DNA of 63,450 bases, filler included, from a candidate division NPL-UPA2 bacterium Unc8 (GTDB taxonomy: Bacteria > NPL-UPA2), in the NCBI GenBank assembly GCA_003574845.1. It is 4 parts of 4 records of this genome, joined end to end, with 100 filler letters (N's around TTAATTAATTAA, not from the genome) between each part and the next. Parts side by side here need not be neighbours in the genome. Positions count along the whole stretch, not along the records: positions 1 to 20,499 come from NDHY01000014.1; positions 20,600 to 38,485 come from NDHY01000015.1; positions 38,586 to 55,618 come from NDHY01000016.1; positions 55,719 to 63,450 come from NDHY01000020.1. One strand, written 5' to 3'. A program made the position numbers and the translations under genes. The notes under the pieces were generated by a model. It was not told where the DNA came from, ran no database searches, and saw only the letters and a program-made list of their open reading frames with translations. Numbering within the stretch: position 1 is the first letter of the stretch; every line of letters begins with the position of its first letter. Shown here in pieces: positions 3,610 to 63,450 of this stretch.

Positions 3610-3724
3610 TTCAGGCTGTAAGCTATGTAGGCTGAAGGGGTCAGGGGTCAGAATTTCCCGATCCCCGATCCCTGATCCCCGTGAACAGTCTTTGTGCCTA
3701 ACAGAGCCTACAGCCTAACAGCCT
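3610..3724. repeat. Intergenic short-period repeat mosaic (GGGGTCA, GATCCCC, CAGCCTAA units)
   Basis: ggggtcaggggtcag, ccgatccccgatccctgatcccc, cctaacagagcctacagcctaacagcct. Confidence 0.75.
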
Positions 3725-4594
3725 TTAATCAACTCTTACCAGTCCTTCATCCGCTACCATTTGCTGTCCTTCCGAGCCAAGCACAAAGTCAATGAACCCC
3801 TGCTCTAATGGTGAAAGCTCACCCATGGTCAAAAATAGGAACGGCCTGGCAATTGCCCAGTCTCCCGCCACCACAGCTGCAGCATCAGGCTTAACTCCGT
3901 CTATTTCGAGAGCTCGCACCGTCGGGTCTACGGCAGGAGAAGCGACATAACTGATAGACGATGGATCACCAGCCACACCGGCTCTGACGCCACCGGTTCC
4001 CACCAGGATAAGTGTTGGCACAGGATCTATTCCCTCATGGACAATCTCTTCAAAGGCATCTCTTGTTCCTGAACCTGCTTCCCTGATTATTACCGTGATT
4101 GGTAAATTTTCGCCACCAACTTTGTTCCAATTTGTAATTTCACCAGTAAATATTTTCTTGAGCTGTTTCATAGTCAAGCCTCTTACTGGATTATTCGGAT
4201 GAACTATTGGAGCTATAGCGTCATGGCAAATTACAAACTCTCTCAAGCCCCATCCAGGCTCATCCCTTCTTAACCAGCGAGAAGCCATTCCTATGTGAAA
4301 GGTCCCTTCCCTGGCACCTACGATTCCAGCGGTTGAGCCTACTGAGTGGGTTTCTACCACTACACCAGGATGCTTATCCATAAATCGCTCTGCCAGGTGA
4401 ACAGCCACTACATATACCGATGAGGAACCCCCAACGACTATTCTTCCTGCTGGTAGTGGTGGCAGTGGCACCTGCGGCGTCACTGCTGGTAGTGGTGGCG
4501 GTGGCACCTGCGGCGCCACTGCCCGAATAATCACGCCAATGCCAATAGCTACCAATACCACTATACCTATTGGTATCCACATTCCCTTTTTCAT
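3725..4594 (-). CDS. pstS: Phosphate ABC transporter substrate-binding protein with an N-terminal membrane anchor and Pro-rich linker
   Basis: GGSSSV, GSTAGI, IGMASR, REAGSGTRDAF; 36-bp tandem duplication at 4447-4518 encodes the Pro-rich linker. Confidence 0.93.
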   Translation of the reverse strand: MKKGMWIPIGIVVLVAIGIGVIIRAVAPQVPPPPLPAVTPQVPLPPLPAGRIVVGGSSSVYVVAVHLAERFMDKHPGVVVETHSVGSTAGIVGAREGTFHIGMASRWLRRDEPGWGLREFVICHDAIAPIVHPNNPVRGLTMKQLKKIFTGEITNWNKVGGENLPITVIIREAGSGTRDAFEEIVHEGIDPVPTLILVGTGGVRAGVAGDPSSISYVASPAVDPTVRALEIDGVKPDAAAVVAGDWAIARPFLFLTMGELSPLEQGFIDFVLGSEGQQMVADEGLVRVD

Positions 4595-4749
4595 TCTTTA
4601 TCCTCCTATTGCTACTCTCTTACTCTTTAGAAAAACACCCCGCTTCCACCAAAAATCCTTAAATCATACCATCCTTTCTCACCTCCTTCTTTCGTACACC
4701 TGCTTTTTTAATCATACCGTCTAAAAAGAGATAATCTGAAGATGTTTTT

Positions 4750-5187
4750 TTATAACAGAGCTCCTATAAGTGCCTCTGCTGTGGCATGATTTGTTGCAAG
4801 TGGTATATCGTGAACATCGCATACCCTTAAAAGGGCAGAGATATCAGGGTCATGAGGCTGGGCAGTCAGAGGGTCCCTTAAAAAAATCACAATGTCTATC
4901 TCGCCACTCGCAATAAGTCCAGCAATCTGTAGGTCGCCACCATCAGGACCGCTGAGCATCTGTTTCACCTCAAGCCCCGTCTTTAACTCAATTGTTTTTC
5001 CCGTTGTCCCTGTCGCAATAAGCTCGCATTGAGCAAGTTTGTCTTTATGTTTATTAGCAAACATTACCATATCTACTTTCTTTGCATCATGGGCAATAAG
5101 GGCTATCCCTTTTACCTTTAGTTTCTTCTTAGTTCTCTTTACAACCCCAATCCTATGCCCCTTATTCACTATTCCTTCTGGTATCAT
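4750..5187 (-). CDS. mgsA: Methylglyoxal synthase
   Basis: [58 protein letters not shown]. Confidence 0.95.
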
Positions 5188-5224
5188 GGTTTATTTCCTC
5201 CTTTTACTAATCACTGCATTTTGC

Positions 5225-5337
5225 ATACTGAAATAAATTCAGCACAAGCTTTGCATTGTAATTTTGACTTTTGAGTTTGTTTCGAGTTTCGAGTTTCGAG
5301 TTTAAGCTTCTCTGTGCCTTTGTGCCTCTTTTTCACT
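5225..5337. repeat. Repeat mosaic: CTGAAATAAATTCAG palindrome, TTTCGAG array block and CTTTGTGC units
   Basis: Block near-identical to 28583-28665 and 46040-46120, and inverted to 43350-43423 and 47272-47327. Confidence 0.85.
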
Positions 5338-5341
5338 TTGT

Positions 5342-5398
5342 AGTATACTTTGTAAGTATTACAGCATTATTACAGCAATATTAAGATTTTGATTAAAA
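5342..5398 (-). promoter_or_regulatory. Pho box array plus -10 element driving mgsA-pstSCAB
   Basis: Minus strand TTTTAAT / TCTTAAT / CTGTAAT-N4-CTGTAAT at 11-12 bp period, ending 10 bp upstream of TATACT (5342-5347); matches PhoB box geometry. Confidence 0.8.
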
Positions 5399-7528: not shown

Positions 7529-7690
7529 TCCCCTTGTGCTTCTGTGCCTCTCTAATAGCTTTCAGCTTTCAGCCTTTAGCCTTAAGGATTCAAGGGGTCA
7601 AGAGGTCAAGGGTTCAAGTGAATCTAAAAAGAAAACAAACACTCGAACCCTCGAATCCTTGAACCCTATTTTCTAATAGTCTTCAGCCTA
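7529..7690. repeat. Repeat mosaic: TGTGCC units, AGCTTTC heptamers and an inverted pair of 8-mer arrays (TTCAAGGG...CTTGAACC)
   Basis: ggattcaaggggtcaagaggtcaagggttcaagtg ... cactcgaaccctcgaatccttgaaccct. Confidence 0.75.
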
Positions 7691-7699
7691 TCCGCCTTA

Positions 7700-9282: not shown

Positions 9283-9299
9283 TCTTTATCTTCCTCCTA

Positions 9300-9425
9300 T
9301 AAATTCCTAAATTCAAATGTCAAATTTCAAATAAAATCCCAATGACAAAACCCAAATTATTTGTCATTAAGGAATTTGTCATTTATTTGTCATTTGAGAT
9401 TTGTCATTTGTCATTGAAATTTCTA
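9300..9425. repeat. Imperfect inverted arrangement of heptamer-based repeats (CAAAT/AATGACAAA versus TTTGTCA)
   Basis: aaattcaaatgtcaaatttcaaa...caatgacaaaa versus tttgtcatt x5. Confidence 0.75.
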
Positions 9426-9429
9426 GACC

Positions 9430-20599: not shown

Positions 20600-20637
20600 A
20601 TATTTCTCATCGCTGTTTTTCTTGCCCTGAGCGCATT

Positions 20638-20703: not shown

Positions 20704-20723
20704 TTTAAAAATTGAGGGAAGAA

Positions 20724-22612: not shown

Positions 22613-24340
22613 CTACTGCTCCACCGGGTCAACATCCACCTTAACCCCCGCCTTATTCCACCTTGAAGAAGAGAGTTCTCCTCTTATTACCCTCCGCATC
22701 CCCGCCAAGTTTTCCCCTTTGATAATTATCTGCTGTCCCCTCATCCCTGCTTTCGATGGAAGGATTTCCACTCCCTCATCGCGATTAGCTTCTAATATTG
22801 CGATAAGCCTCCTGAAAGCTTCCTCATCCTTTATCATTATATTAATCAGAGAGGTAAATGGAGGATAGTTTAACTGGCGACGGAACTCTACCTCCTCTCT
22901 GTAAAACTGCGGGTAATCACCAACGTTTAAAATACTATAGTGAGCGGGATTGTAGGTCTGGATAATTACTTTACCATTTTGCTTGCCCAAAAGAGAATTG
23001 CTCACCTGTGTGAGAAGCTGAAACATTTTCTCGGCAGCCCGAAAATTACCGATATTAAGAATAGTATCGGCGGAGATAATCCCGACAAGGGAGAGGCGCT
23101 CGCCACCCAATTCTTTGAGAACTGCCTGTGTCCCTATTAAAATATCTATCTTCCCGCGGCGAAATAAACTAATTGTTTCTTCATACTTTGTGCCTTTGTG
23201 CCTTTGTGCCCTTGTGCCTTCTTCATAGGCTGTGCCTGCTTTTCCCAAACGAGCGTTAGGGAAAAGCCTTCCTACCTCATCTATAAGCTTCTGCGTCCCT
23301 GCCCCGCGGCGGCTGATGAAGAGAACCGTCTGCTCGCCTCTTCTGAGGCAGGCTTCTATCTCCTGACGCAGCTCAAGAGAAAGCGCCCAGCGAACCCTGC
23401 GGCTGCTAAATTCACGGCGGAGGTCGGCAATCTCAATCTCAGGGAGCTCTTTTTTCTCCCCTGCAGGAGAAAGCACCATCAATTTATATTTTCCGCGCTC
23501 TGCCTGAAAATACGACTCAAGGGAAGGAGCCTGCGCCCCGAGAATGAGGGGAACTTTCCAGAGCCTGGCTCTCTCCAATGCCACTTCCCGCGCATGGTAG
23601 GCAGGGGTTCTTTTTTCTTTATAGAGAGGGTTACTTTCTTCATCAACGATAATCAGCCCGAGGTTCACAAGTGGAGCAAATACCGCCGACCTTGTGCCGA
23701 TAACAACTCTTGCCGCACCACTCCTCATTCTCAACCACTCGTGATACCTCTCCCAGGGTAGGAGGCGACCATGCAAAATAGCAATCTTTTCTCTAAATTG
23801 GAAGCGCAGTAAATTCAGGATATTTTGAAAGTGGGAAACCTCGGGAAAAAGGACCAGTGCCTGCCTGCCCTGCTTCAGGGCTTGCTTGATTGCCTGAAGG
23901 TAAAATTCTATTTTTCCACCTCCCCTATTTGCGTGATGAAGAAGTGTTACTGATGATGATAACGATTCAGCCGGTGGGGAAGAGAGCTCCTCCGGAGAGA
24001 AGCTCTTCTTTTTTTTCATTCTTACCCCGGGAGGAAAAGCCGCATGCAGCGCCTCTCCCCAGGGGCAGCAGTAGTAATCACTCACCCATCTGGTCAGCTT
24101 CAGCATCTCTCCATCAAAGATTGGGGATGAGTCAACTATTTCGGCTATCTCCCTCAGGCTGACATCCGGCTTCTCCCGGGAAAGACCCACCACATATCCT
24201 GTGAGCTTTCTCCCGGAGAAGGGGACAACTACCCGCACGCCGGGGATTACCTCGCCGGTCATTTCCTCGGGGAGCGCATAGTAAAATGCCTTCTCCACCG
24301 GAACCCCAACGACTACCTTTGCGTAGGAGCGCATTAGCAT
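22613..24340 (-). CDS. priA: Primosomal protein N' (reduced and degenerate)
   Basis: 3'-binding domain (PGVRVVVPF, WVSDYY), VVIGTRSAVFAP, GLIIVDEE, YHAREVA, DILIGTQ, IIQTYNP, YPPF. Confidence 0.85.
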   Translation of the reverse strand: MLMRSYAKVVVGVPVEKAFYYALPEEMTGEVIPGVRVVVPFSGRKLTGYVVGLSREKPDVSLREIAEIVDSSPIFDGEMLKLTRWVSDYYCCPWGEALHAAFPPGVRMKKKKSFSPEELSSPPAESLSSSVTLLHHANRGGGKIEFYLQAIKQALKQGRQALVLFPEVSHFQNILNLLRFQFREKIAILHGRLLPWERYHEWLRMRSGAARVVIGTRSAVFAPLVNLGLIIVDEESNPLYKEKRTPAYHAREVALERARLWKVPLILGAQAPSLESYFQAERGKYKLMVLSPAGEKKELPEIEIADLRREFSSRRVRWALSLELRQEIEACLRRGEQTVLFISRRGAGTQKLIDEVGRLFPNARLGKAGTAYEEGTRAQRHKGTKYEETISLFRRGKIDILIGTQAVLKELGGERLSLVGIISADTILNIGNFRAAEKMFQLLTQVSNSLLGKQNGKVIIQTYNPAHYSILNVGDYPQFYREEVEFRRQLNYPPFTSLINIMIKDEEAFRRLIAILEANRDEGVEILPSKAGMRGQQIIIKGENLAGMRRVIRGELSSSRWNKAGVKVDVDPVEQ

Positions 24341-26478: not shown

Positions 26479-26645
26479 TCTAATAGCTTTCAGCTTTCAG
26501 GAACAATCGTCGGAAATCGCACCGCTCTAAACAGTCTACAGTCTACAGTCTACAGTTCACAGTTTACAGTTTACCTGTCTGCGTGCAACCGCACAGGCAG
26601 GCAGTTCTGACTTCTGACTTCCAATCACCAATCACCATTCACCAA
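26455..26645. repeat. Repeat mosaic between rplM and rpsI (AGCTTTC, ACAGTCT, TTCTGAC, AATCACC heptamers plus a CCTG..CAGG palindrome)
   Basis: Same module order as 50865-50984. Confidence 0.85.
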
Positions 26646-27053
26646 TTTTTGTGCCTGATGCGGATGTTCGGAGCTGGCATAAATCCTTACTTTTTTTAGC
26701 ATTGCCCGACCCAACTTATTGTGCGGGAGCATTCCTTTAATTGCTAACATTAATGTCTTCTCCGGCTTTTTCTCAAGCAGGGTTTTTAGCTTAACCTGCT
26801 TTAATCCGCCCGGGTACCCGGTATGACGATAATATATCTTTTTCTCTTGCTTGCGTCCTGTCCAGAGAACATCCTTAACATTGATTATTACCACATGGTC
26901 CCCGGTGTCAAGATGAGGAGAATAAATCGGCTTTTCCTTTCCGCGCAGGATGTGCGCCACCCGTGCCGCAAGCCTCCCTGCAACTCTACCACTGGCATCA
27001 ATAAGATACCATTTCCTCTCAATATCCCCGGCATGCGGGCTAAAAGTTTTCAT
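26625..27053 (-). CDS. rplM: 50S ribosomal protein L13
   Basis: [50 protein letters not shown]. Confidence 0.97.
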
Positions 27054-27146
27054 TTTAAGTTTTTCGGGCTTGAACAAGGAACAAGGTCTTTCCTTGACTC
27101 TTCACCTTGAACCCTGAACCTTGAATCTTTTTCTCAATGAAGTTAG

Positions 27147-28450: not shown

Positions 28451-28665
28451 CACCAGTTACCAATTACAAACCCCCTGCCTGCGGCAGGCAGGTAAATCCT
28501 ACCCTGAACTTGATTCAGGGCTAAATAAATTCAAATGTTCCAAATCCAAATAACCAAAACTACGTCTTGAATTTCGGTCATTTGACTTTTGATTTTGTTT
28601 CGAGTTTCGAGTTTCGTATTTAGAGTTTAGGCTTCTTTGTGCCTCTGTGCCTTTGTGCCTTTTTC
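28451..28665. repeat. Repeat mosaic with nested palindromes (CCTGCCTGCGGCAGGCAGG; CCCTGAACTTGATTCAGGG) and the TTTCGAG/TGTGCC block
   Basis: Read directly; block shared with 5260-5330 and 46053-46120. Confidence 0.85.
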
Positions 28666-30257: not shown

Positions 30258-30356
30258 ATAGGTTCGGGGTTCGGGGTTCAAGGATTGAAATTAGAAATTA
30301 GAAATTGGTAACTGGTAACTTGGTGCTCTGATGCACCGGAATGGGTTAGGTTATCT

Positions 30357-36080: not shown

Positions 36081-36119
36081 ATTGTTAGCTCTCAGCTCTC
36101 AGCTTTCAGCGTTCAGCTA

Positions 36120-38586: not shown

Positions 38587-41103
38587 AAACAGAGGCAAAA
38601 AGGCAAAAAGGCACAGAGGCACAGAGGCACAGAGGCACAGAGGCACAGAGGCACAGAGTTTAGGAAAAACGAGAAGGGAGTAGCGCTGATTGCGGCAGTG
38701 ATGGTTACGGCAATCCTTGCCGGAGTTGGCATCTCTTTTGCCTTTAATATGAGGTTGGAAGAAAAGGCTGCCGCCAATTATCTCTGGAAGACCCAGGCGG
38801 ATGCCATTGCCCGGGGCGGAATAGAGCGAACCATCCGGCACATAACTGCTCGGAGAGACGAGCAGTTTACACATCTTGGAAATTACTCAATTGCTGTTAT
38901 TAATGAGCCTCTCGGCGGGGGGCTCACCGCCCGCAGCGAGGTTACAGTCCGCGATGAGGCAGGAAAGGTGAACTTAAACACCTCGGGTCATGGTCGCGTG
39001 GCTACTGCCTTTTCAAATCACCTTGCGAACCCGGGCATAAGCCGGGGATGGAGCACTGCTGAGGTCACACTTCCACCCATTGGCATCACCTCTACCACCT
39101 GGAGTAGGAAGTTTGGCAGAGATGGCCAGCCGGGAGTCGCTGGTCCGGGAGCCCTTGGTGATGACAACAGATTCCTACCCGGTGGTATTACCATTAATCC
39201 TTTTGGCGCCAACTCAGTCCTTGCTCATGATAGAATTGACAATGACGGTGACGGGGTTGTTGATGAGCCAAATGAAGGAGTAAATGAGCCCAGTGAGTTT
39301 GCCTTTGAGAGAGGAGGAAGGGTAACTCTGGATTTTGCTCATGTGGCGGATGACCGACCATTCATCACCGTAGGAGAGACTGGGACACCGGGAGTGGATC
39401 TATCTATCTTCACAACTCTTCACTCCCGCGACCGTCGCACCGACAAGGATGAATGGTGGAGGCCTGGAGGGACTGGAGGGGTAGGGATAGGAGGAACTAA
39501 AACAAATATCAATACAGCCTCCGCGGCAGGACTGCGGGATACTTTAATGGCTACTCTCGGACTTAGTACGGCGGATGCAGCCCGAATTGCTGTTAACATC
39601 ATAGATTTTCGTGACGCTGACAGCATCCCGACTACACTGGATGGAAAAAGAGGCATTGAGAGAACCCTCTTTATCAATGAAATAAAAATGAATAGATACT
39701 GGAGCCTCTGGCGGTTGCAGTACATGCATGAGGTGCGTGACTTTGAGCTTCATAACCCCTGGCCTGTAGCAATCACCGGACACTATCGTGTATACTGGAT
39801 AGACATAAGCGGTGATAGGAGAAGGCTTTTAAATGAAACTATTACCATCCCAGCCAGGGGTTTTAAGAAATTCCATCATGATCCCCCCTCTAATGCAAAC
39901 CCGGGAGGCCATATGGAGCTCTGGTTCCGGGACGCTGGATGGCACCAGATTGAGATAGTGGGCCTTTCGCCTACTAATTTTGACCGTCATTGGAGTGCTA
40001 AAAACGACCCGCGCGTGCCTGTGTTTACCTATACAGGCCCTAATCACTCATTGGGTAGAGTAAATGATTCACCGCCACTTCAGGACTTCAGGCCAACATT
40101 ATCCGGAGAGGTCACGATTCCAACCTATTGGGCAGGGCATTTTAACCACTTTAACAGAGGTTTTCACAATATCGGCGAGTTAGGCTACATTCACACCGGG
40201 GGGCAGTGGAGCACTCTTCGGATGCGGAATGTAACGCCTCCTGGCGCTACTACTGCACTCGCCCATCAGGGAGCGATACTCAGCCGGGTTACGATCGGTC
40301 ATCCCTACAACCGCATGGGTAGAATAAATATCAACACCGCAGAACGTAGTATTCTAACCTCTCTTCCTCAGATGGAGATTCAAGGTGTCCAGGCTGAAGG
40401 CATTCTTCAGAACAGACCATTTGGGACAATCGGGGATGCAGTTCCTCACCTTACTGCTGTGGTGGCAGGAGCTGCGATTGATGTCCGTATTACCCAGTTG
40501 ATGCAGTGGATCCAGGATGTTGTTAACTGGGCAATCCACTGGCCAAGAACCTGGGGCTGGCCACTCCGGGGCGTCGGGAGAAGCCTCCACAACTGGATGC
40601 TTGATGAGCTTATACGTTCCCCTATTGATAATCCCCCTATCAATGTCGTTATCAACCGTAATCCGGCCGATGGAAGAACATATGTTAATTTCTTTGCGAG
40701 TCCGCTTTCCACCTCAATTGTAAGAGGAATTAGCCTTAATGTCGTCAATGTTACCCAGAGTGTCATTACCTGGGCGCGAAACAATGTTCCTGGCTGGTTT
40801 GGCTGGAGGGAGAGTCTTATAAATAGATATCTCAATCCCATTACAAGAGCAGCAGGCACTGCTTATCAATTCACCCTTGCAGGTGATGACTTAGATGGAG
40901 ATGGCTTTCGTGGAGAGGATGATGAGCTTGAGACAATTGTTCGCTCGGTCTCCAATCTCATCACCACCCGCTCCGACCGCTTTGAGATTGTCTCCACCGG
41001 TTCTGTCTGGCGCGGGGGAGAGAAACTGGCCGAGAGCGGGATGCGTGTGATTGTCTGTAGAATCTCTCAGCCTGCAACAATTCTTCACTTTGAGAGAAGG
41101 TGA
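38587..41103 (+). CDS. GspK/PilX-like large minor pseudopilin (5' end cut by contig edge)
   Basis: NEKG|VALIAAV prepilin-like site, DEAGKVNLNT, repeated ININTA HhH motifs, DNDGDG Ca-binding loops, C-terminal NLITTRSDRFEIVSTG. Confidence 0.8.
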   Translation, partial: KQRQKGKKAQRHRGTEAQRHRGTEFRKNEKGVALIAAVMVTAILAGVGISFAFNMRLEEKAAANYLWKTQADAIARGGIERTIRHITARRDEQFTHLGNYSIAVINEPLGGGLTARSEVTVRDEAGKVNLNTSGHGRVATAFSNHLANPGISRGWSTAEVTLPPIGITSTTWSRKFGRDGQPGVAGPGALGDDNRFLPGGITINPFGANSVLAHDRIDNDGDGVVDEPNEGVNEPSEFAFERGGRVTLDFAHVADDRPFITVGETGTPGVDLSIFTTLHSRDRRTDKDEWWRPGGTGGVGIGGTKTNINTASAAGLRDTLMATLGLSTADAARIAVNIIDFRDADSIPTTLDGKRGIERTLFINEIKMNRYWSLWRLQYMHEVRDFELHNPWPVAITGHYRVYWIDISGDRRRLLNETITIPARGFKKFHHDPPSNANPGGHMELWFRDAGWHQIEIVGLSPTNFDRHWSAKNDPRVPVFTYTGPNHSLGRVNDSPPLQDFRPTLSGEVTIPTYWAGHFNHFNRGFHNIGELGYIHTGGQWSTLRMRNVTPPGATTALAHQGAILSRVTIGHPYNRMGRININTAERSILTSLPQMEIQGVQAEGILQNRPFGTIGDAVPHLTAVVAGAAIDVRITQLMQWIQDVVNWAIHWPRTWGWPLRGVGRSLHNWMLDELIRSPIDNPPINVVINRNPADGRTYVNFFASPLSTSIVRGISLNVVNVTQSVITWARNNVPGWFGWRESLINRYLNPITRAAGTAYQFTLAGDDLDGDGFRGEDDELETIVRSVSNLITTRSDRFEIVSTGSVWRGGEKLAESGMRVIVCRISQPATILHFERR

Positions 41104-42098: not shown

Positions 42099-42818
42099 AT
42101 GAGAAAGGGATTTATTGTTGCATTAGTAGTTGTTACTGTTGCTTTCATTTTTTTTATTATGATTGCTCGCAGAGCAGAGGAGGGCCTCGTGGTTTCTCCT
42201 CCATTGCTGGATGAGGAGCAGATAGAAGAGATTAAGGCTGAGGCAGTCAAAGAAGTTGCCAGAGAGATTGAAGTCTTTCCTCCTGTGGAGGAAATTCAAT
42301 ATGAGAGAAGAGGGTTTTCGGAGTGGAAGCATACTCTTGAACATTCTCCTTCCTCTTTGGAACGAATGGAGGCAATAAGAGCGCTTCATGCATTTGGTCC
42401 GGCGGCTGTGCCGGTACTCATTGAGAAAGTAGAAAGGGGAGAAGATCGCTGGACTCGCAAATGGGCTATCTCCTCTCTTGGTGAGATTGGTCCGATGGCA
42501 AAAGATGCGGTCCCGGTCCTTATGAAAGTATTAAGGGAAGAGGAGTCGGTTCTCTTGAGGGAAGAGGAGTTGGTTCTCTTGCGGGAGACTGCTGCAACTT
42601 CTCTTGGTAAGATTGGTCCGATGGCTGCAGATGCTGTGCCTCTTCTCATTGAGACTCTCAAGGAGGATGAATGGCGAATGCGGCTGGCGGCGGCAGGCGC
42701 TCTCGGTGGAATTGGGCCATTAGCACAGGATGCCATACCGGCCCTGAGAGAGCTGCGGAATGATGAGAACGAGCTTGTGAGATTTCATTCCAGAGGGTCT
42801 CTTGAACGGATAAGATAG
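42099..42818 (+). CDS. Membrane-anchored HEAT/PBS-lyase repeat protein
   Basis: N-terminal TM; repeated LG.IGP.A.DAVP.L units; 24-bp duplication at 42534-42581. Confidence 0.85.
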   Translation: MRKGFIVALVVVTVAFIFFIMIARRAEEGLVVSPPLLDEEQIEEIKAEAVKEVAREIEVFPPVEEIQYERRGFSEWKHTLEHSPSSLERMEAIRALHAFGPAAVPVLIEKVERGEDRWTRKWAISSLGEIGPMAKDAVPVLMKVLREEESVLLREEELVLLRETAATSLGKIGPMAADAVPLLIETLKEDEWRMRLAAAGALGGIGPLAQDAIPALRELRNDENELVRFHSRGSLERIR

Positions 42819-42916
42819 GGTCAGGTCTCCACACTCCACACAAAATGATAGCCTAGAGCTAATTTTCAATTTCTAATTTTCAATCTCTAAGCCTTTGGAT
42901 ATTAGTACAAAATTCC

Positions 42917-43224: not shown

Positions 43225-43371
43225 ATGATGGGAAAGCGTTTTCTGATTTTTATTTTTCTTCTGACTTTCTTCTTCCCCGTTCGGGCGGGGATAGTGGAAA
43301 GGATCGTGGCGATAGCAGGCAATAATAGAGGGGTCAGGTCTCCACACTCCACAGAGAAGCTTAAACTCTAA
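43225..43371 (+). pseudogene. Truncated exported-protein gene (SurA-like N-terminus) ending inside a repeat block
   Basis: AGGTGA RBS; MMGKRFLIFIFLLTFFFPVRAGIVERIVAIAGN, then repeat-derived residues and a stop. Confidence 0.5.
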
Positions 43372-43536
43372 ATACGAAACTCGAAACTCGAAACAAACTC
43401 AAAACTCAAAATTACAATGCAAAATTAGAAATTGAAAACCAATTGAAAATTAGAAATTGAAAATTAATTGAAAATTGAAAATTGAAAATTAGAAATTGGT
43501 AATTGGTGTTCTGGTGTTCTGGTGCACTGGTGCACT
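43324..43536. repeat. Repeat mosaic (GGGGTCAGGTCTCCACACTCCAC, CTCGAAA block, AAATTG(A) heptamers, TGGTGTTC octamers)
   Basis: 43324-43407 nearly identical to 47242-47327. Confidence 0.88.
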
Positions 43537-43825: not shown

Positions 43826-43897
43826 AAAAGGCACAGAGGCACAAAGGCACAAAGTTTATTTTATTGTTCTGGGTTTTCACAGTTGCCATTTTGTGCC

Positions 43898-45967
43898 TTA
43901 CTTTAAATATTGTTCGAGCTCTTCTTTGAGCTCTCCTATCCATGGCTCAATTTTCACGGCGCGCTCGTAATCAAGTCTTAACGCTTCCTTGTATTCGGCT
44001 AAGGCATCAGACTTTCTTTCCATTCTCTTATATATCATAGCGAGGATAAGGCGGTATCTCACCGAGGCCGGGAAATAATCGCGGGCTCTCTCAAAAGATG
44101 CCACTGCCTGATTCATAAGTGCCTCATCTTTTTCTCCGGACTTAGTCCAGAGAGCCTTTCCCAGGCTGTAATGGTAATGAGAGATAAATGGATTGAGCTG
44201 AATAGCTTCCTCAAAAGATGCAACTGCCTGATTTAAGATGCCCCCTCTTTGATAAATCATGCCTAATTGATGGTGGAAAACAGGGTTTAAGGGGTCTAAT
44301 TTAATTGCCCCTCTTACCTCAGATGCTGCTCTCTTTAGGTTTCCTCTCACTAAGTAAGAGTGCGCCTCCATTGAGTGCCTGTCAGCCAGCATTGGTCTTC
44401 TCACCATTACAATTGATGAACATAGGAGGAAAAACACAACAATCAGCGCTACTACTCTGAGCAGGTTACTTTTTAACCTGTAACTTAGCGGCAGTTTATC
44501 ATTATGCCTCTGTCTCTCTGTGCCTCTGCTACTTTGTGCCTTTGTGCCTTTTCTCGTTGCCATCACTACTCCGGCAAAAATCCAGACATAGGTGGCAATG
44601 CCTGGAATGTAGAGGTCAAAATATCCAAAACTGTTGATAAGAAAAGTGATAATACCTGCATAACAACCGAGGAGGAGAGCCTTCTCGGTTTTTTTAGAGC
44701 TTTCTCTGAACTTTCTCCATCCTGCTTTTAAGAAAGCCACCCCCAGCCACAGGAAAGACGCTATTCCCAGGATTCCCATCTCTGAGAAGACCTGAAGATA
44801 ATTATTGTGCGCCATACGCGTTTCTTCAGCGAAAGGAATCTTATGCTGAGCATAGAGTGAGGCAAACGTTCCCGGTCCAGAGCCAAAGACAGGATAGTCT
44901 TTAATCATCTCCCAGGTAGCTCTCCAGTAGTCAAGGCGAACCTCAAGAGAGGCAGACATAGACCTGCCCATCCGCTCAACCCCCGGGATGAATTCCCTGG
45001 TATAGGGAAGGAGAAGGAGGAAAGCCGCAATCACGGCAAAAGACAGGATATGAACTCTATATTTCCGGAGAGAAACGAGGAGAACGAGAAAAATTGCAAA
45101 AAGTGAGCTTGCCCAGCCCCCGTAGGAGAATGTAAGGTAGAGGCAAAAGACTCCACTGATAAAGAGAATTGCAGGAAATATCCTCTTCCAACCAGAGAGA
45201 TAAATAAAGAAAGAGAGGGCAAGGGGAAGAATCATCCCCAGGTAAGCGGCAAGAGCGGGGGCAAAGAGAAACGTTGAAAAAGCCTCACGTCCATAAAGAG
45301 CACGTCTCAGGAAGTCAGGATGAAATTCACTAATATCGTAATGAGCTATTAAGAATTCCCTCATTCGCTCCAATCCAAAGTAATACTGATAGATTCCATA
45401 GGCAATTACTAAAATGGCGGCAAGGAAAATTGCTGCAATGATAAAGGGTGAATGGTGACTGCCGACTGCCGACTGCCGACTGCCGACTGCTGACTGGTGA
45501 CTGGTGACTGGTGAACCGAGGACATTGACGATGAGGAGGTAAAGAAGCGGGTAGCTCAGGAACTGGTAAAGCTGCCTTACGCTAATGCCCCTGGAAACAG
45601 AGTAGATTGTAGAGATTATAAGAGCAATAGAGAACAGGAGAATTGGCAACGGGATTCTATGAATGGAGAGCTCCCATTTAAGTAGCATTCCAATTACCCA
45701 GAGCCCAAGGAGGACAATGATGAGGATTTGCGCATATGTATTTGACCACTCAAAGGTAACTCCACAGATGAGGGGACGAAAAAATAGGAGGAGAACGACT
45801 CCAATGAAAACTCCCGGAGAAAAGACTGAACGCTGAAGGCTGGTGAATGGTGAATGGTGAATGGTGAATGGTGAATGGGTGAGTGGGTGAGAAACCCATC
45901 TACCCATCAACTTATTTACCCATTTACCCATTTTGTGCCTTTGTTTCTCTTTAATAGCTTTCAGCAT
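43898..45967 (-). CDS. O-antigen ligase-like (Wzy_C) membrane protein with C-terminal TPRs
   Basis: LYLTFSYGGW, RLDYW..IKDYPVFGSGPGTF, AHNNYLQVFSEMGILG; TPR tail; start uncertain. Confidence 0.85.
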   Translation of the reverse strand: MLKAIKEKQRHKMGKWVNKLMGRWVSHPLTHSPFTIHHSPFTSLQRSVFSPGVFIGVVLLLFFRPLICGVTFEWSNTYAQILIIVLLGLWVIGMLLKWELSIHRIPLPILLFSIALIISTIYSVSRGISVRQLYQFLSYPLLYLLIVNVLGSPVTSHQSAVGSRQSAVGSHHSPFIIAAIFLAAILVIAYGIYQYYFGLERMREFLIAHYDISEFHPDFLRRALYGREAFSTFLFAPALAAYLGMILPLALSFFIYLSGWKRIFPAILFISGVFCLYLTFSYGGWASSLFAIFLVLLVSLRKYRVHILSFAVIAAFLLLLPYTREFIPGVERMGRSMSASLEVRLDYWRATWEMIKDYPVFGSGPGTFASLYAQHKIPFAEETRMAHNNYLQVFSEMGILGIASFLWLGVAFLKAGWRKFRESSKKTEKALLLGCYAGIITFLINSFGYFDLYIPGIATYVWIFAGVVMATRKGTKAQSSRGTERQRHNDKLPLSYRLKSNLLRVVALIVVFFLLCSSIVMVRRPMLADRHSMEAHSYLVRGNLKRAASEVRGAIKLDPLNPVFHHQLGMIYQRGGILNQAVASFEEAIQLNPFISHYHYSLGKALWTKSGEKDEALMNQAVASFERARDYFPASVRYRLILAMIYKRMERKSDALAEYKEALRLDYERAVKIEPWIGELKEELEQYLK

Positions 45968-46150
45968 TCCTGGTAGCCGCAGGCTTCAGCCTGCGCCGAA
46001 GTAACGCAACCTAAAGGTTGCGACTCTCAATTTTCAATTTTGCATTGTAATTTTGAGTTTTGAGTTTGTTTCGAGTTTCGAGTTTCGTATTTAGAGTTTA
46101 GGCTTCTCTGTGCCTCTGTGTAAAGTCACATCGCAAGACCTGACACCTAA
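45966..46150. repeat. Partial REP doublet, TTTCGAG block and GCAAGACCTGACACC module
   Basis: Reverse complement of the 41942-42005 core joined to the block seen at 5250 and 28583. Confidence 0.85.
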
Positions 46151-47241: not shown

Positions 47242-47456
47242 AATAGAGGGGTCAGGTCTCCACACTCCACACAGAGAAGCTTAAACTCTAAATACGAAAC
47301 TCGAAACTCGAAACAAACTCAAAACTCTAAATGACAACTCAAGGCTAATTTTCAATTAATTCTCAATTTTCAATTTTCATTGAATGTTTCAATTTTCAAA
47401 TCTTGATTGTTTTATTCTGAATTCTGACTCCTAACTTCTGGCTCCTGACTTTGTGC
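47242..47456. repeat. Repeat mosaic sharing blocks with 43324-43407 and 57152-57260
   Basis: caattttcaaatcttgattgttttattctgaattctg occurs both here and near 57186-57222. Confidence 0.85.
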
Positions 47457-50864: not shown

Positions 50865-50984
50865 GCAGTCTACAGTTCACAGTTTGCAGTTTACAGTCCA
50901 CAGTTTGCAGGTAAGTATTCTGAGTCCTGAATTCTGGCTTCTGACTCCTGACTTCTGACTTCCAATCACCAATCACCAATCACC
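50865..50984. repeat. Heptamer mosaic (ACAGTTT, TTCTGAC, AATCACC)
   Basis: Same module order as 26531-26645. Confidence 0.85.
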
Positions 50985-50987
50985 TTT

Positions 50988-52958: not shown

Positions 52959-52959
52959 T

Positions 52960-53214: not shown

Positions 53215-53226
53215 CTCTGCCCGCTC

Positions 53227-55332: not shown

Positions 55333-55509
55333 ATGAGGTTGATTTTTATTGGAATAGGTATTGCCATGTTTATTGAAGGGATTATCTGGTTCTTCTTTCC
55401 GGAAAAAGTCACCAGATATCTTGCCGGTCAAGTGCTCAAATTGCGCATTGCCGGCGTCATCCTTCTTCTCATTTCTCTCACTCTTATTTACGCCACTATC
55501 TATCATTAA
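55333..55509 (+). CDS. DUF2065 (YjeT-like) small membrane protein; alternative start at 55300
   Basis: IGIAMFIEGIIWFFFPE..LRIAGVILL pattern. Confidence 0.6.
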   Translation: MRLIFIGIGIAMFIEGIIWFFFPEKVTRYLAGQVLKLRIAGVILLLISLTLIYATIYH

Positions 55510-55527
55510 AATTAGGCTGAAGACCAC

Positions 55528-55618
55528 TTACTTCTTTTTGTACTCCGGACACTTCAGAGCATTCGGTCTTTCGCGACGGAGGCAAACATTTCCCCAGTCA
55601 TATTTGCAGGTATCGCAC
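55528..55618 (-). CDS. 3' end of a small Cys-rich protein (cut by contig edge)
   Basis: Minus frame CDTCKYDWGNVCLRRERPNALKCPEYKKK*. Confidence 0.45.
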
Positions 55619-55718
55619 NNNNNNNNNNNNNNNNNNNNNNNNNNNNNNNNNNNNNNNNNNNNTTAATTAATTAANNNNNNNNNNNNNNNNNNNNNNNNNN
55701 NNNNNNNNNNNNNNNNNN
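55619..55718. other. Artificial contig linker
   Basis: N44-TTAATTAATTAA-N44. Confidence 0.98.
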
Positions 55719-55721
55719 ACA

Positions 55722-55801
55722 CTGAACACGTTATTCTTGGTAGCCGCAGGCTTCAGCCTGCGCCGAAGTAACGCAACCTAAAGGTTGCGGCTACCTTCAA
55801 A
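55722..55801. repeat. Internal part of the 126-bp MITE (REP doublet), inverted
   Basis: tgaacacgttattcttggtagccgcaggcttcagcctgcg...gcggctaccttcaaa matches the reverse complement of 41937-42016. Confidence 0.85.
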
Positions 55802-56989: not shown

Positions 56990-57260
56990 TCCTATGTCTT
57001 AGGTTTTAGGCATTAGGTCTTAGTTTTTTAATCTCTCTCTAACACCTGACACCCAACGTATCATATCCCCAAAATCCCATCAAGAAAAATTGGTGAATGG
57101 TCATTGGTCAATAGTCAATGGTGAATGGTCAATAGTCAATGGTCACTACTTACTAATTTCTAATTTTCAATTAATTTTCAATTCTCAATTTTCAAATCTT
57201 GATTGTTTTATTCTGAATTCTGGCTTCTAACTTCTGGCTTCTGAATTCTAACTTCTGGCT
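56990..57260. repeat. Heptamer mosaic (TAGGTCT, GGTCAAT, TTTTCAA, TTCTGGC) overlapping the leuD 3' end
   Basis: Read directly; shares a block with 47345-47450. Confidence 0.8.
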
Positions 57261-57765
57261 TTGTCAAGATGTACTTCATCAGCCCACCAGCAGCAATTAT
57301 CTTCTGCATAAACTCAGGAAAAGGAGCAACTACCCACCTAACTTTCTCGTCACTATCGGTGCCACCCCTATGGTGAGCAGGAGACTTACTTATTGTCCCG
57401 GCAGAAATATCAACTTCAAGGATGTCGCCTTCATCTATTTCCTGAACTGCCTCAGGGCACTCCAGGATCGGTAATCCAATGTTAATAGAATTACGGTAGA
57501 AAATGCGGGCAAAACTTCTCGCAATAATGCAGGAAATTCCTGCTCCCTTAATCGCCAGTGGAGCATGCTCGCGTGATGAGCCGCAGCCAAAGTTTCTTCC
57601 TGCTACAATTATATTACCCGGCTCTATTCTGGCAGGAAGATTTTTGTCTAACCCCTCCAGACAGTGCTGAGCAAGAAAAGACGGCTCGCTGGTATTCAAG
57701 TAGACAGCGGGGATTATCTCATCAGTATTGATGTTATCACCTAATTTTAGAACTTTTCCTTTCAT
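57208..57765 (-). CDS. leuD: 3-isopropylmalate dehydratase small subunit
   Basis: [31 protein letters not shown]. Confidence 0.93.
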
Positions 57766-61016: not shown

Positions 61017-61028
61017 TTACAAAGAAAA

Positions 61029-61817
61029 ATGATTAAAGTAATTGTAACCGGCATTTGCGGGAGAATGGGAAGGAGAATTGCGACTCTCCTTGGAGATGGG
61101 ATTGAACTCATCGGAGCAACGGAGAGCAAAGGACACCCGTCAATAGGGGAGGATGCGGGAGAAGTTCTGGGTCTCTCAAAAAAAGGAATTATCATTGAGG
61201 AAAGCTTAGAGAAAATCATTGCTCAGGGCGATGTCATAATTGATTTTACTATGCCTCAGGCAACATTAACTCATTTAAGGTTCGCAGTAAAGGAGACAAA
61301 AGGCATGGTTATTGGCACCACAGGATTTAATAATGAAGAATTATCCGAGATTGAGAGATTAGCGAATAGCATTCCCTGTCTTCTTTCTCCAAATATGAGC
61401 GTTGGAGTGAATTTATTGTTCAGGCTTGCTGATGAGGCTGCCAGGGCATTGGGAGATAAATATAACATTGAAATTGTTGAATCTCATCATCGCCATAAGA
61501 AAGATGCCCCCAGCGGAACGGCAAAAAAAATAGCTGAAATCCTTGCTCAGGCAAGAGGAATAGAATCAAAAAAGGTAGCAATTCACTCTCTACGAGCAGG
61601 TGATATTATAGGTGAGCACACAATTATCTTTGCGGGAGAGGAAGAAAGAATAGAACTGGTGCACCGCGCCGAGAGCAGAGATACTTTTGCCCGCGGAGCC
61701 ATCCGCGCCGCCAAATTTATTGCTCAGGCTTCTCCCGGACTTTACGGTATGAAAGACGTCTTATGCCGAGGGCCGGAATCGAACCGGCATGGAGGGAATG
61801 CCTCCAACGGATTTTAA
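61029..61817 (+). CDS. dapB: 4-hydroxy-tetrahydrodipicolinate reductase; 3' end runs into the antisense tRNA
   Basis: GICGRMG, IDFT, IGTTG, ESHHRHKKDAPSGTA. Confidence 0.95.
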   Translation: MIKVIVTGICGRMGRRIATLLGDGIELIGATESKGHPSIGEDAGEVLGLSKKGIIIEESLEKIIAQGDVIIDFTMPQATLTHLRFAVKETKGMVIGTTGFNNEELSEIERLANSIPCLLSPNMSVGVNLLFRLADEAARALGDKYNIEIVESHHRHKKDAPSGTAKKIAEILAQARGIESKKVAIHSLRAGDIIGEHTIIFAGEEERIELVHRAESRDTFARGAIRAAKFIAQASPGLYGMKDVLCRGPESNRHGGNASNGF

Positions 61818-61850
61818 GTCCGTCGCGTCTTCCTGTTCCGCCACCCCGGC
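61764..61850 (-). tRNA. tRNA-Leu(TAA), 87 nt, long variable arm, CCA not encoded
   Basis: GCCGGGG acceptor stem, ACGGA-CT-TAA-AA-TCCGT anticodon arm, GGTTCGATTCC T-arm. Confidence 0.95.
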
Positions 61851-61977
61851 AAAACAGAGCACCAGTATGATGGGCTGAAGGCTGTTAGGAAAGTAGAAAT
61901 TGGAAACTGGAAATTGGGAAGAACAGCACAAAAGCATAAAGGGCAAATTTCTAATTTCACCGTTCCTTGAACCGTAC

Positions 61978-63267
61978 TTACTCATTTTGTTGAGATTTGA
62001 CCTCGTCTCCAGAAATTTTGGCTATTCTTACCTTGATTATCTGACGCTGGTCAGCCTCAATAATACTAATTTTTAAGTTTTTGTAAAATATGTCCTCTCC
62101 TTTCTGAGGAATGTAACCTAAGTAATCAGTAATTGCTCCAGCTATCGTTTCCACTCCTTCCTTTTCCGGGAAGCTGATGTCAAATCTTTCGTTAATTTCG
62201 CCAATATCTGCCCTGCCACTGACCACTGCCAGCTCATCAGCAAGGATTATAATCTCCTCTTTTTTTGTGTAGCCATATTCATCTTCTATCTCTCCAACAA
62301 TTTCTTCTATTAGGTCTTCAATGGTAACCAACCCCACTGTTCCTCCATATTCATCAACGACAACGGCTATGTGAATTCTCCTATTCTTAAACTCACGCAG
62401 TAACTCATCCACTTTCTTCGCCTCCGGGACAAAATACGGGATTTGCATAAGCTTGGATAGCGGTTTTATCTCCCCTTTTGGCCAGAGGCCGAGCAGGTCC
62501 TTAACATAAAGAACTCCCACAACATCATCAATTTTTTCCTTAAAGACAAGTATGCGGGAGTGACCTGTAGATACTGCCAGCTTAAAGGCCTCCTCTAAAT
62601 CTGATTCTATCTCAATTGCGACTATATCCGGGCGCGGGACCATTACCTCACGCACCTTTTTCTCTCCAAACTCAAAGACTCCTTCAATCATCTCTTTTTT
62701 TTCTTTCTCAAGAACTCCTTCTTCCTCGCCAAGGTTGATCAGCCCTTTAATCTCATCTTCAGTCATAAATGGCTCAAACCCTCCTCTCCTCCCGCCACAA
62801 AGCCTGATCAACTGACCAGCGACGAAGAGAAAAAACTTAACCAATGGAGAAAAAAGGTAAGAGAAAAAAATCAACAGTTTCATTGCTCTGAGGGCTACTT
62901 TCTCAGCATTTACTCGGGCATAGGTTTTGGGAGCTATTTCTCCGAAAATGAGTATCAGGAAAGTCATCACTCCTGTAGAAACAGCTCCTATCTTGCCCGC
63001 GGTGGTTTCCCCGAAGAGACGCAGAAGAATAAATGTAAGGAGCACTGAAGCAGATATGTTAGCGATATTGTTTCCAACTAATATGGTGGCAAGCAAGTTG
63101 TCCGGGTTGTTTAGCCAGGCAAAAAGGATTTTTCTCTTTTCAATCAGGCTTTTTGTTTTTAACTTCCCCAGGGAAGTAAGCGCCGTCTCCGAGCCTGAAA
63201 AAAAAGCCGATAGCGCAAGTAAGAAAGTTAGGGCAAGAAACTGCCATATTATTGGAGATTTTTCCAT
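61978..63267 (-). CDS. Hemolysin/CNNM (DUF21-CBS-CorC) family transporter
   Basis: [53 protein letters not shown]. Confidence 0.92.
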
Positions 63268-63356
63268 TTATTTTGTAATAGTAAACAATTTTTTTGCCAA
63301 TGTCAAAGAATTTGACATCTTAAGGCAACTTCGGTAATATTAACAGGGCGGTAGTA

Positions 63357-63450
63357 AAGGCACAAAGGCACAGAGAATTAAGTTGTAAGTGGTAAGTGGT
63401 AAGTAGAGAGAGAGTAAAGACGTGGTATAAAAGCAGGTTTGAAGGTAGCC
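63357..63450. repeat. GGCACAAA and TGGTAAG repeats followed by the start of another copy of the 126-bp MITE interior
   Basis: agtaaagacgtggtataaaagcaggtttgaaggtagcc is identical to 41912-41949. Confidence 0.8.

Follow-up and report, generated by a model that had tools for sequence, protein, structure and literature searches.

Short tandemly repeated repetitive (STRR) sequences date from 1990; their hosts are heterocystous cyanobacteria, and their classical units are the heptamers CCCCAGT, TTGGTCA and CAACAGT. Here we describe arrays of a similar kind in a 63,450-nt stretch of DNA (the window) from candidate division NPL-UPA2 bacterium Unc8 (GCA_003574845.1), an uncultured lineage that does not look cyanobacterial and much of whose non-coding DNA is occupied by arrays of 7- and 8-nt units. 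The arrays are real, abundant and modular, and they vary between sister genomes. In our judgement they are rather probably STRR-type long simple-sequence repeats, built of head-to-tail 7-nt units and derived 8-nt units, that originate by slippage and ectopic templated copying and then pass a selection filter.

Several heptamer systems have been described. The 7-bp STRRs form a hairpin between hupS and hupL, for which the available text of that study proposes a role as protector or terminator of mRNA (PMC2670836), and the accessible part of another report describes their use in fingerprinting (PMC5088731). TAACTGA repeats occur in marine Beggiatoaceae, some Cyanobacteria and Bacteroidetes (MacGregor 2015, PMC4679880). 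As far as the available text of that paper goes, they form groups of 2-6 or more intergenic copies, mostly near start codons and in one orientation, with occasional copies in open reading frames (ORFs) that encode 7-residue repeats, and their mechanism is unknown. The repeats GGGNATC and GGGGAYT of Xanthomonas and Nostoc form G-quadruplexes, according to the accessible text of Rehm et al. 2015 (PMC4692102). Geobacter metallireducens carries five tandem MTYCTGA units in inverted pairs, for instance between proB and proA, and GGACCGG x4 between and within genes; the MTYCTGA elements were read as sites of a global regulator (IHF/HU), and the part of the paper available describes few families and neither block mobility nor octamers (PMC2700814). 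In Nostoc, heptamers near start codons had small effects on a reporter (preprint 10.1101/2022.06.06.494920). A 2007 survey, as cited in the available text of PMC4679880 and PMC4692102, found heptanucleotides to be the commonest long simple-sequence repeat in many bacteria, and slippage was proposed as the cause (via PMC4679880). The origin and purpose of bacterial heptamer arrays have long been open, and the literature of 2009-2022, in its accessible portions, still calls their function unknown.

The window consists of four draft contigs concatenated, not of a single chromosome stretch. Three identical artificial linkers (44 N, TTAATTAATTAA, 44 N; 20500-20599, 38486-38585 and 55619-55718) join the contigs, so gene order and synteny across the joins are meaningless. 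A crude gene model (longest ORFs of at least 90 amino acids, overlaps of at most 60 nt) gave 52 ORFs and 32 intergenic regions of at least 30 nt. Self-similarity of these intergenic regions (6488 nt) was far above 200 dinucleotide-preserving shuffles at lags 7 (z=15.1), 8 (7.9), 14 (9.6) and 21 (8.4), with a weaker signal at lag 6 (z=5.0); mononucleotide shuffles as the null gave z=16.9 at lag 7 and 8.9 at lag 8. By the same autocorrelation, ORF DNA showed the 3-base coding period only. Tandem Repeats Finder (TRF; score of at least 30, best non-overlapping rows) called 27 arrays of period 7, 8 of period 14, 14 of period 8 and one of period 16, compared with means of 1.43, 0.13, 1.47 and 0 in 30 block-shuffles. 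Arrays were present in 19 of the 32 intergenic regions, often spanning the spacer from stop to start codon, and covered 1114 of 6188 intergenic nucleotides (18%) versus 402 of 56,962 ORF nucleotides (0.7%). The rplM frame even stops at a TGA within a GGTGATT array. The enrichment of periods 7 and 8 in intergenic DNA that a first-pass annotation of the window had claimed is thereby confirmed, and all heptamers and octamers that it listed were found in their places; its description of the arrays as intergenic holds for the bulk of them, but at least three lie in frame within coding sequence.

More than 20 unit families were distinguished in the window. The period-8 unit is often the period-7 unit plus one base, as in TTCAAGG and TCAAGGGG, ACCTTGA at 27104 and TCAAGGGG at 7590, or TGGTGAA at 45841 and GGTGAGTG at 45870. 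Within the array at 45449, identical units form runs and variants occur in blocks (TGACTGC, CGACTGC x4, TGACTGG x3), and several arrays have higher-order periods of 14 or 21 nt (e.g. 57091 and 57211). Contrary to what had been proposed, the register is not fixed: units of the two periods interconvert by one base, and some arrays have longer periods. No Rfam family covered the arrays or blocks: at the gathering threshold one tRNA alone was found, and E<=0.5 added only a weak His_leader match (24340-24437) outside the arrays.

The same periodicity was found in the only close relative that a YidC search recovered from a species-representative genome collection, a metagenome-assembled "uncultured bacterium" (L001), whose intergenic DNA gave z=13.3 at lag 7 and z=7.7 at lag 8. 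Seven unrelated Gemmatimonadota loci, fetched by chance in the YidC scan, served as controls; six had no signal at lag 7 or 8, and the seventh (L006) had z=4.6 at lag 7.

Whole composites of arrays, and short runs typical of a family, turn up at new sites, coding DNA included. The best example is block A, an ordered series of degenerate heptamers of ~75 nt (AAGCTTAAACTCT, AAATACG, AAACTCG, AAACTCG, AAAC, AAACTCA, AAACTCA, AAATTAC, AATGCAAA) with five copies at 5232, 28581, 43350, 46027 and 47270. Since an identical order of variants cannot arise five times independently, the segment must have been copied. To its left stand octamers (GGCACAGA) or CTCCACA units, whereas its right side differs from site to site (unique DNA, a palindromic element, AATTGAA arrays or their complement); four of the five point toward the next gene start, and neither terminal inverted repeats nor flanking duplications were seen at the edges of the five. 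Matches between composites reach 91-97% for 43324-43422 and 47242-47342, 97% for 43350-43435 and the inverse of 46027-46112, and 75-96% within the group 5256, 28581 and 46052. A second composite of TTTTCAA-type and TTCTGAC-type arrays stands after the fusA stop codon and again after that of leuD, the two copies being 94% identical (47389-47451 and 57185-57247), and 26605-26654 matches 50946-50995 at 78% with modules in the same order. L001 carries two tandem copies of a 105-nt composite, made of GGTAATT and CAATTTG arrays, at 15352-15554 and an inverted copy 5.1 kb away at 20628-20751 (94-96%). The two loci bracket a type II secretion pseudopilin operon (gspG/H/I/J/K-like) and could be a substrate for inversion.

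Orthologous spacers of the two genomes allowed a direct comparison. The L001 DNA available to us spans 22 kb, and 4.6 kb of it is syntenic with the window; the two YidC proteins share 83% identity, and the DNA is 87% identical over window positions 50995-55511. After the yidC stop codon, both genomes continue with AGTCAGA, AGTCAGG and AG[T/C]CAGA. The window has three extra TGATTGG units before the shared units and more units after them, while in L001 AGGGCAT units follow the shared ones; the neighbouring genes beyond the spacer differ. The spacer between a small Cys-rich ORF and the transglycosylase gene measures ~21 nt in the window and is ~105 nt longer in L001, the addition consisting of GGTTCAGA-type octamers, CAGAACC units and AACTTGTA octamers. 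This extra segment (L001 7365-7468) is a copy of L001 ~13290-13400, located 6 kb away and also just before a gene start. Whole composites are thus present or absent at orthologous spacers: copy number and modules differ at the sole array-bearing one, and the second holds a composite in L001 but next to nothing in the window. The phrase "period conserved, sequence not" was therefore half right, as part of the sequence is kept at the yidC spacer. The recurrent composites reported in the first-pass annotation are real (e.g. 43324/47242, 5256/28581/46052 and 47389/57185), and its proposal that some copying process spreads the modules is upheld by the five copies of block A and by the ~105-nt L001 composite with its second copy.

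The small Cys-rich ORF lies 5' of the transglycosylase gene, and its window copy is cut by the contig end. The end of this ORF (...CDTCKYDWGNVC...CPEYKKK*) is 90% identical at the nucleotide level between the window (55528-55618, -) and L001 (7274-7364).

Repeats in short-read metagenomes may be produced by assembly, binning or contig concatenation, and the window is a concatenation of four contigs in which two of the three joins abut repeats (an octamer array at 38589 and a palindromic element at 55720). As a source of the arrays, however, such artefacts are scarcely conceivable. Most arrays are shorter than 100 nt and have unique sequence on both sides within a contig, arrays with units in common stand at the yidC spacer of L001, which was assembled independently, and array-encoded inserts keep the frames of conserved proteins open. 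Moreover, a database cluster of six member sequences from two contigs and several sources contains PriA, insert included, at 100% identity. The possibility that the shared blocks are assembly artefacts, raised when they were first noted, is accordingly unlikely.

Arrays inside coding sequence keep the reading frame. PriA has a surplus of 12 residues, encoded by in-frame GGCACAAA octamers at 23186-23220 and missing from the four closest homologues aligned (P0003-P0006, 61-75% identity), two distant ones and the solved Klebsiella PriA. The DNA of the site reads GGCACAGCC TATGAAGAA, four octamers, TATGAAGAA; the native GGCACAGCC at its start nearly matches the octamer, and TATGAAGAA stands on either side of the insert as a 9-nt direct repeat. 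Elsewhere in the protein, the PriA homologue P0006 contains EVQGSGVQGS..., in which VQGSGVQGS is the exact translation of alternating GTTCAGG/GTTCAGGG units; the window and L001 both carry this family. Six octamers (44505-44552) in the linker of an O-antigen-ligase/TPR protein encode RKGTKAQSSRGTERQRH, whereas the homologue P0123 (80% identity) has ANCKLQIANCKL at the same place, an exact match to (CAAATTG)n, a family found in L001, and P0124 (70%) has nothing. At a third array (45449-45514), P0124 and remoter homologues hold ~60 other residues. From these sequences, it would appear that permissive points of conserved proteins have independently received different members of the library in different relatives. 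Because gene starts in our model are crude, arrays assigned to ORFs near 5' ends (for example 45841-45933 and 43504-43532) are probably upstream of where the genes truly begin.

Both the O-antigen-ligase/TPR protein of the window (P0001; 43898-45967, -) and P0123, the nearest to it, lack a ~60-residue segment of P0124 and the distant homologues, and in the window the gap is filled by the heptamer-encoded peptide. PriA itself (22613-24325, -) is without the Cys-rich zinc-binding region (~45 residues, between RRG and GxGT) and a DRD-type segment; P0003-P0006 also lack the Cys-rich region, and homologues at 40-42% identity have it. A link between this altered replication-restart helicase and the repeat load is pure speculation.

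Near-identical blocks of 70-124 nt at distant sites in both orientations, a block present in one genome and absent from the other at an orthologous site, and the priA insert with its flanking 9-nt repeat are what one would also expect of non-autonomous mobile elements of the miniature inverted-repeat transposable element (MITE), REPIN or small-dispersed-repeat type, moved by an enzyme encoded elsewhere, be it a Y1 transposase (REP-associated tyrosine transposase, RAYT), a reverse transcriptase or a nuclease that primes copying; GTAG-tagged palindromic doublets in the same spacers further hint at a RAYT gene in the genome. We nevertheless regard such elements as decidedly unlikely, because the block edges are inconstant and fade into different arrays, no terminal inverted repeats were seen, and the arrays are not palindromic as RAYT substrates are. 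Flanking repeats were found at just one of four insertions inspected (priA); none was evident at the other three (the L001 spacer, 44505-44552 and 45449-45514). Scans of 85 kb with NCBIfam (52 window ORFs of at least 90 amino acids) and Pfam (12 poorly annotated window ORFs and 13 L001 ORFs) revealed no transposase, RAYT or reverse transcriptase domain, in line with the earlier remark that no responsible enzyme is visible in the window.

A more radical proposal is that a dedicated copy-and-paste process seeds runs of 7-8-nt units from a genomic "library" at new sites, loops of essential proteins included, primed by homology of a few bases. It could be carried out by a repair polymerase or primase that has become specialised, by a reverse-transcribing system, or by an altered replication-restart pathway; as to the last, PriA of this lineage is without its Cys-rich region. 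We rate this as very improbable. If true, such a process or its horizontal transfer would explain heptamer arrays across cyanobacteria, Beggiatoaceae, Xanthomonas, Geobacter and the NPL-UPA2 lineage, sometimes with a shared unit (MTYCTGA).

Some families are oriented relative to transcription. The window and L001 together have 50 arrays that lie between co-directional genes; one of these is exactly half purine, and of the other 49, 35 have a purine-rich sense strand (binomial p=0.004). At sites where orientation could be determined, GGCACARA has seven sense copies and one antisense, and the GTCAGAA type has five and one, with all five sense copies beginning within 30 nt past a stop codon (that of yidC in both genomes, and those of rplM, fusA and leuD in the window). 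AAACTCG is in sense at three of four sites, and TTGAAAA is in sense at four of five intergenic sites of the window but mixed in L001; the orientation of GGTGATT/TGGTGAA is mixed. Orientation flips with the gene strand inside 3 kb (43.4-46.1 kb) and thus tracks transcription, not the direction of replication. A scan for promoter and terminator consensus sequences over 41-58 kb gave 34 promoter-like hits versus 23.6 +/- 5.4 and 24 terminator-like hits versus 17.1 +/- 4.6, too near background for the arrays to be placed relative to transcripts.

Such polarity would also suit arrays that are primarily functional, that is, platforms binding one protein per 7-8 nt, whose spread amounts to the recruitment of genes into a regulon. 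The binder could be an OB-fold single-strand binder on mRNA (cold-shock or S1 type, affecting translation or stability) or a DNA-bending protein of the IHF/HU type. This explanation, which we hold to be unlikely, draws on the fixed orientation and position of the GTCAGAA type (5/5 sense copies after stops) and GGCACARA (7:1), and on arrays that abut gene starts having no GGAG, GAGG or AGGA within 18 nt (pstC, rpsI, dnaG, mnmE, pheA and leuC). It is also consistent with the direction of blocks toward the downstream gene (block A 4/5, L001 block 3/3), with exact tandem dimers of MTYCTGA at three window loci and one L001 locus, and with published proposals for TAACTGA with S1/Csp/Csr (available text of PMC4679880), Geobacter metallireducens (available text of PMC2700814) and Nostoc (10.1101/2022.06.06.494920). 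However, more than 20 unrelated units would be unreadable by one binder, the families also occur in frame inside proteins and in either orientation, and a whole composite stands before a conserved gene in one genome and is missing before the same gene in its sister. No candidate binding protein was identified in the window.

Inverted arrays are predicted to form strong hairpins. Nine regions with direct arrays only were no more structured than shuffles (z -1.4 to +1.1), whereas three regions with inverted arrays folded into long hairpins (z -4.0 to -6.0). The pstS-pstC region (3590-3724) has a predicted energy of -53.2 kcal/mol (z=-4.0), the regions 7585-7670 and 9295-9429 gave z=-6.0 and z=-5.0, and in each case none of 200 shuffles was as stable. 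Of the three imperfect inverted pairs listed in the first-pass annotation, the latter two stood, but the third did not (28515-28612; z=-1.8, 10 of 200 shuffles as stable). The region 45975-46120 also folds well (z=-4.1), which it owes to a separate palindromic element.

Taken together, we favor an account in which strand slippage would create arrays and change their size, one unit or 2-3 units at a time, and new unit types would appear by a point change or a one-base gain and then be re-amplified. Short family-typical runs and ordered multi-array segments of 70-105 nt would be copied to new loci by ectopic templated repair or replication, namely by template switching or gene conversion that short homology to an existing array would prime, and not by classical transposition; the GGCACAGCC seed at priA suggests such priming. 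Selection, which has been shown in part, would act as the filter: arrays would persist mainly in transcribed spacers, some families would keep one orientation and with it a purine-rich sense strand, inverted arrays would be stable intercistronic hairpins that probably protect or terminate mRNA, and in-frame hydrophilic versions would be tolerated in protein loops and linkers.

Several points weigh against this account. The copying of blocks supports the first-pass proposal of active copying or slippage, but the signature expected of slippage, greater likeness of adjacent units, was not significant in 20 arrays (the distances between adjacent units sum to 115, against 122.8 on average after permutation, and 566 of 5000 permutations gave a sum no higher). 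With DNA from one relative, insertion and deletion are not polarised. The orientation counts are small, copies of one block are not independent, and GGTGATT/TGGTGAA and TTGAAAA are mixed in L001; a purine-rich sense strand would also be expected if arrays were selected as RNA-binding sites, and the transcribed state of the spacers was judged from gene order. The 9-nt repeat at priA could instead have arisen as a target-site duplication when a genuine mobile element inserted, or could be what is left of an 18-nt local duplication, and the inserts in relatives' proteins were read from peptide periodicity.

Table 1. Arrays and related repeats in the window, with strand, composition and basis of the call where given.
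Coordinates	Strand	Location or feature	Composition	Basis
3636..3724	-	pstS-pstC spacer	AGGGGTC x2.3, CCCGATC x3.6, AGCCTAAC x2.6; arrays pair as inverted arms	TRF; RNA fold
5232..5330	-	upstream of mgsA	block A copy, then GGCACARA octamers	block matches
7534..7667	.		octamers GGCACAGA, heptamers AGCTTTC, inverted pair TCAAGGGG x3.6 / AACCCTCG x3.8	TRF; fold z=-6.0
9300..9425	-	long hairpin	inverted TTTGTCA-type arrays	fold of 9295-9429, z=-5.0
23186..23220	-	in frame in priA, peptide ...EGTRAQRHKGTK...	octamer array GCACAAAG x4.4; flanking 9-nt direct repeat TATGAAGAA	
25975..26001	-		octamer array CTTTGTGC x3.4, sense strand GGCACAAA	TRF
26485..26646	-	rplM-rpsI spacer	sense: GGTGATT array, GTCAGAA x2.4, hairpin, AGACTGT/AAACTGT x6.3, GAAAGCT x2.3	
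27104..27129	-	upstream of rplM	ACCTTGA x3.7	TRF
28581..28662	-	between divergent leuC and yifB	block A copy, CTTTGTGC x3.5	
30261..30320	+	fill yifB-pheA spacer	GGTTCGG x2.7, GAAATTA x2.9, TGGTAAC x2.1	
36087..36118	-	nearly whole 39-nt spacer before dnaG	AGCTCTC x4.6	
38589..38658	+	begins 3 nt past artificial linker	longest octamer array, ACAGAGGC x8.8	
42811..42890	+		GGGTCAGGTCTCCACACTCCACA module, CTAATTTTCAAT x2.3 (antisense TTGAAAA family)	
43324..43532	+	into predicted zapA start	block A copy, AATTGAA x8.7, TGGTGTTC x3.6	
43827..43854	+	1 nt past zapA stop	octamers AAAGGCAC x3.5; 79% to L001 7085-7154	
44505..44552	-	in frame, linker of O-antigen-ligase/TPR protein	six octamers, peptide RKGTKAQSSRGTERQRH	
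45449..45514	-	in frame, O-antigen-ligase/TPR protein	heptamers TGACTGC/CGACTGC/TGACTGG	
45841..45933	-	doubtful 5' end of O-antigen-ligase/TPR ORF (N-terminus not conserved)	TGGTGAA x5.4 (100% matches), GGTGAGTG x2.8, ACCCATTT x5	
46027..46120	-		block A copy, 97% inverse of 43350-43435	
47242..47451	.	ends 5 nt before fusA stop	block A copy (sole antisense one), TTTTCAA-type array, TTCTGAC-type array	
50866..50984	-	yidC-mnmE spacer	sense: TGATTGG x3.3, GTCAGAA-type x6.4, AAACTGT-type x6	
56996..57261	-	last array overlaps leuD 3' end	GTCTTAG x4, TGGTCAA x7.9 (21-nt higher order), TTTCAAT-type, TTCTGAC-type x7.3	
61888..61917	+		GGAAATT x4.3	TRF
63356..63404	+	3' of promoter-like TTGACA-N17-TAATAT	AAAGGCAC x2.1, TAAGTGG x3.7	promoter read by eye
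38371-38418, 41944-42005, 43040-43111, 45971-46025, 55740-55795, 63440-63450 (cut by window end)		palindromic family sites		

The arrays share their spacers with a separate palindromic family, GGTAGCCGCA-NNN-TTNA-NNN-TGCG ... CGCA-NNN-TNAA-NNN-TGCGGCTACC, of which six copies were found (Table 1). Like REPIN doublets, they are made of two inverted hairpins, whose outer tags are GTAG/CTAC and whose inner stems show compensatory changes. REP and REPIN elements are mobilised by RAYT (PMC3116915), and GTAG-tagged REPs are described in the accessible text of PMC3733652. By analogy, the doublets hint at a RAYT gene elsewhere in the genome, and the suggestion of RAYT as a candidate, first made for the arrays, suits this family instead. 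Flanking sequences of the family are also shared: 41912-41949 equals 63413-63450 (100%), and 41937-42018 is a 98% inverse of 55720-55801.

Other repeats were noted in passing. A palindrome GCTGAAATAAATTCAGC followed by ATGACAAAG occurs at 5212-5244, 41846-41901 and 42030-42047, as a 21-nt tandem repeat x2.3 at 41853-41901 and as single copies elsewhere. A 21-22-nt tandem repeat, TTCCCTAGAGAGTACCTTGAG x3 (20636-20707), lies directly 5' of a TPR protein gene just past a contig join. At the rpsI start (26451-26491, -), an 18-nt tandem duplication x2.3, whose unit contains the GAAAGCT module, creates two in-frame ATGs, ATGACGAAAGCTATTAGA and then ATGACAAAAG...; it is the latter that agrees with the N-terminus usual for S9. 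In L001, an HNH endonuclease gene (4641-5237, -) adjoins an octamer array (4579-4612), with a HEPN/nucleotidyltransferase pair nearby (5828-6618).

Most ORFs of the window are ordinary housekeeping genes by NCBIfam, including pstSCAB, phoBR, comEA, comEC, priA, rplM-rpsI and fusA; dnaG followed by a 569-residue rpoD; archaeal-type leuC with leuD; cysS and pheA; and mnmE, a 655-residue yidC, a lytic transglycosylase with YbgF/BamD-like repeats, lysA, dapF, dapA and dapB. Two ComEC-related ORFs were found on the minus strand (12595-15864, 1089 residues; 16770-17657, a 295-residue metallo-beta-lactamase-domain piece), with a SpoVG-domain ORF between them and comEA downstream. Neither this gene content nor the nearest proteins are cyanobacterial, so that the host does not look like a cyanobacterium. 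Look-alikes of RpoD proposed by a language model (ESM Atlas) belong to Thermodesulfobacteriota, Acidobacteriota, Aminicenantota and Spirochaetota. PriA is 100% identical to a database entry labelled by its depositor "Firmicutes/Bacillota bacterium"; four homologues follow at 61-75%, then named ones at 40-42% ("candidate division NPL-UPA2", "Nitrospirae"), and the homologues of the O-antigen-ligase/TPR protein show a like pattern of relationship.

The NPL-UPA2 lineage is an unusually rich case for the study of such arrays, with many families and both 7- and 8-nt units, and its sister genomes, at 87% nucleotide identity in genes, are close enough for filled and empty sites to be recognised. Inserts in conserved proteins date the events and show copying from a library beyond in-place expansion, and the mechanism is testable by analysis of junctions in several relatives. 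The arrays also affect annotation: they make ORFs too long, provide stop codons, give rise to false N-termini and interrupt assemblies.

Resemblance of single units to published heptamers was not taken as shared descent. An exact match as a tandem dimer was obtained for MTYCTGA alone; with one mismatch allowed, GGGNATC, TTGGTCA and GACYAAT each match at a single locus and TTTTGAA matches at two loci of L001. For so many units, resemblances within one mismatch are near chance, and no claim of common descent is made.

Among more distant classes, the arrays differ from CRISPR arrays (24-48-nt repeats with unique spacers) in having contiguous units of 7-8 nt, and from MITEs in having no terminal inverted repeats, no fixed ends and a flanking repeat at only one of four insertions. 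Simple-sequence repeats of contingency loci switch frames or promoters, whereas the in-ORF arrays of the window preserve the frame. REP and REPIN elements are likewise short, abundant, intergenic and hairpin-forming, but the array units are direct and carry no GTAG/CGTC tag, and no RAYT was found in the scanned ORFs. The small dispersed repeats of Nostoc punctiforme, a subject of Elhai et al. in 2008, are reportedly single units of 21-27 nt within heptamer arrays. They would resemble the window arrays in placing tiny units at new sites without recognisable transposase ends in a heptamer-rich genome; the copied units of the window are instead composites of 70-124 nt or runs of 7-8-nt units.

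The described heptamer systems are closer. With the TAACTGA system, as presented in its available text, the window shares intergenic heptamer arrays, proximity to start codons and in-ORF copies, but that system has one dominant unit with related heptamers rarely repeated, compared with more than 20 families here; tandem TAACTGA was found at no locus of the window or L001, even with one mismatch allowed. Non-coding enrichment, variable copy number, some inverted arrangements and positions that are not conserved between close species are common to our arrays and the GGGNATC/GGGGAYT repeats, as far as the accessible text on the latter shows (PMC4692102); a single array of the G-quadruplex type (3657-3681, GGGGATC/AGGGATC) occurs in the window, as a dimer only within one mismatch. 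TTCTGAC is a rotation of the Geobacter unit MTYCTGA, with exact tandem dimers at three window loci and one L001 locus, and eight window loci within one mismatch. Unlike the class-3 sites of Geobacter, however, this family has a single orientation after stop codons and no inverted partner of its own kind.

The closest likeness is to the cyanobacterial STRRs: tandem 7-nt units, many dispersed intergenic loci, several families per genome and hairpin arrays between cistrons. STRRs in the strict sense (STRR1-3) differ in host, and the window has no exact tandem dimers of the three classical units, TTGGTCA alone occurring within one mismatch at one locus. Another difference lies in octamer arrays, which are about half as common as heptamer arrays in the window. 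The precedent of STRRs, invoked when the repeats were first noted, is apt, since the anatomy of the arrays, including hairpins between cistrons, is that of the cyanobacterial 7-bp repeats in the available text of PMC2670836. The class of intergenic heptamer arrays is thus already known, and what the window adds to it is the lineage, the octamers beside heptamers, the gain and loss of whole blocks, and the independent in-frame landings in proteins.

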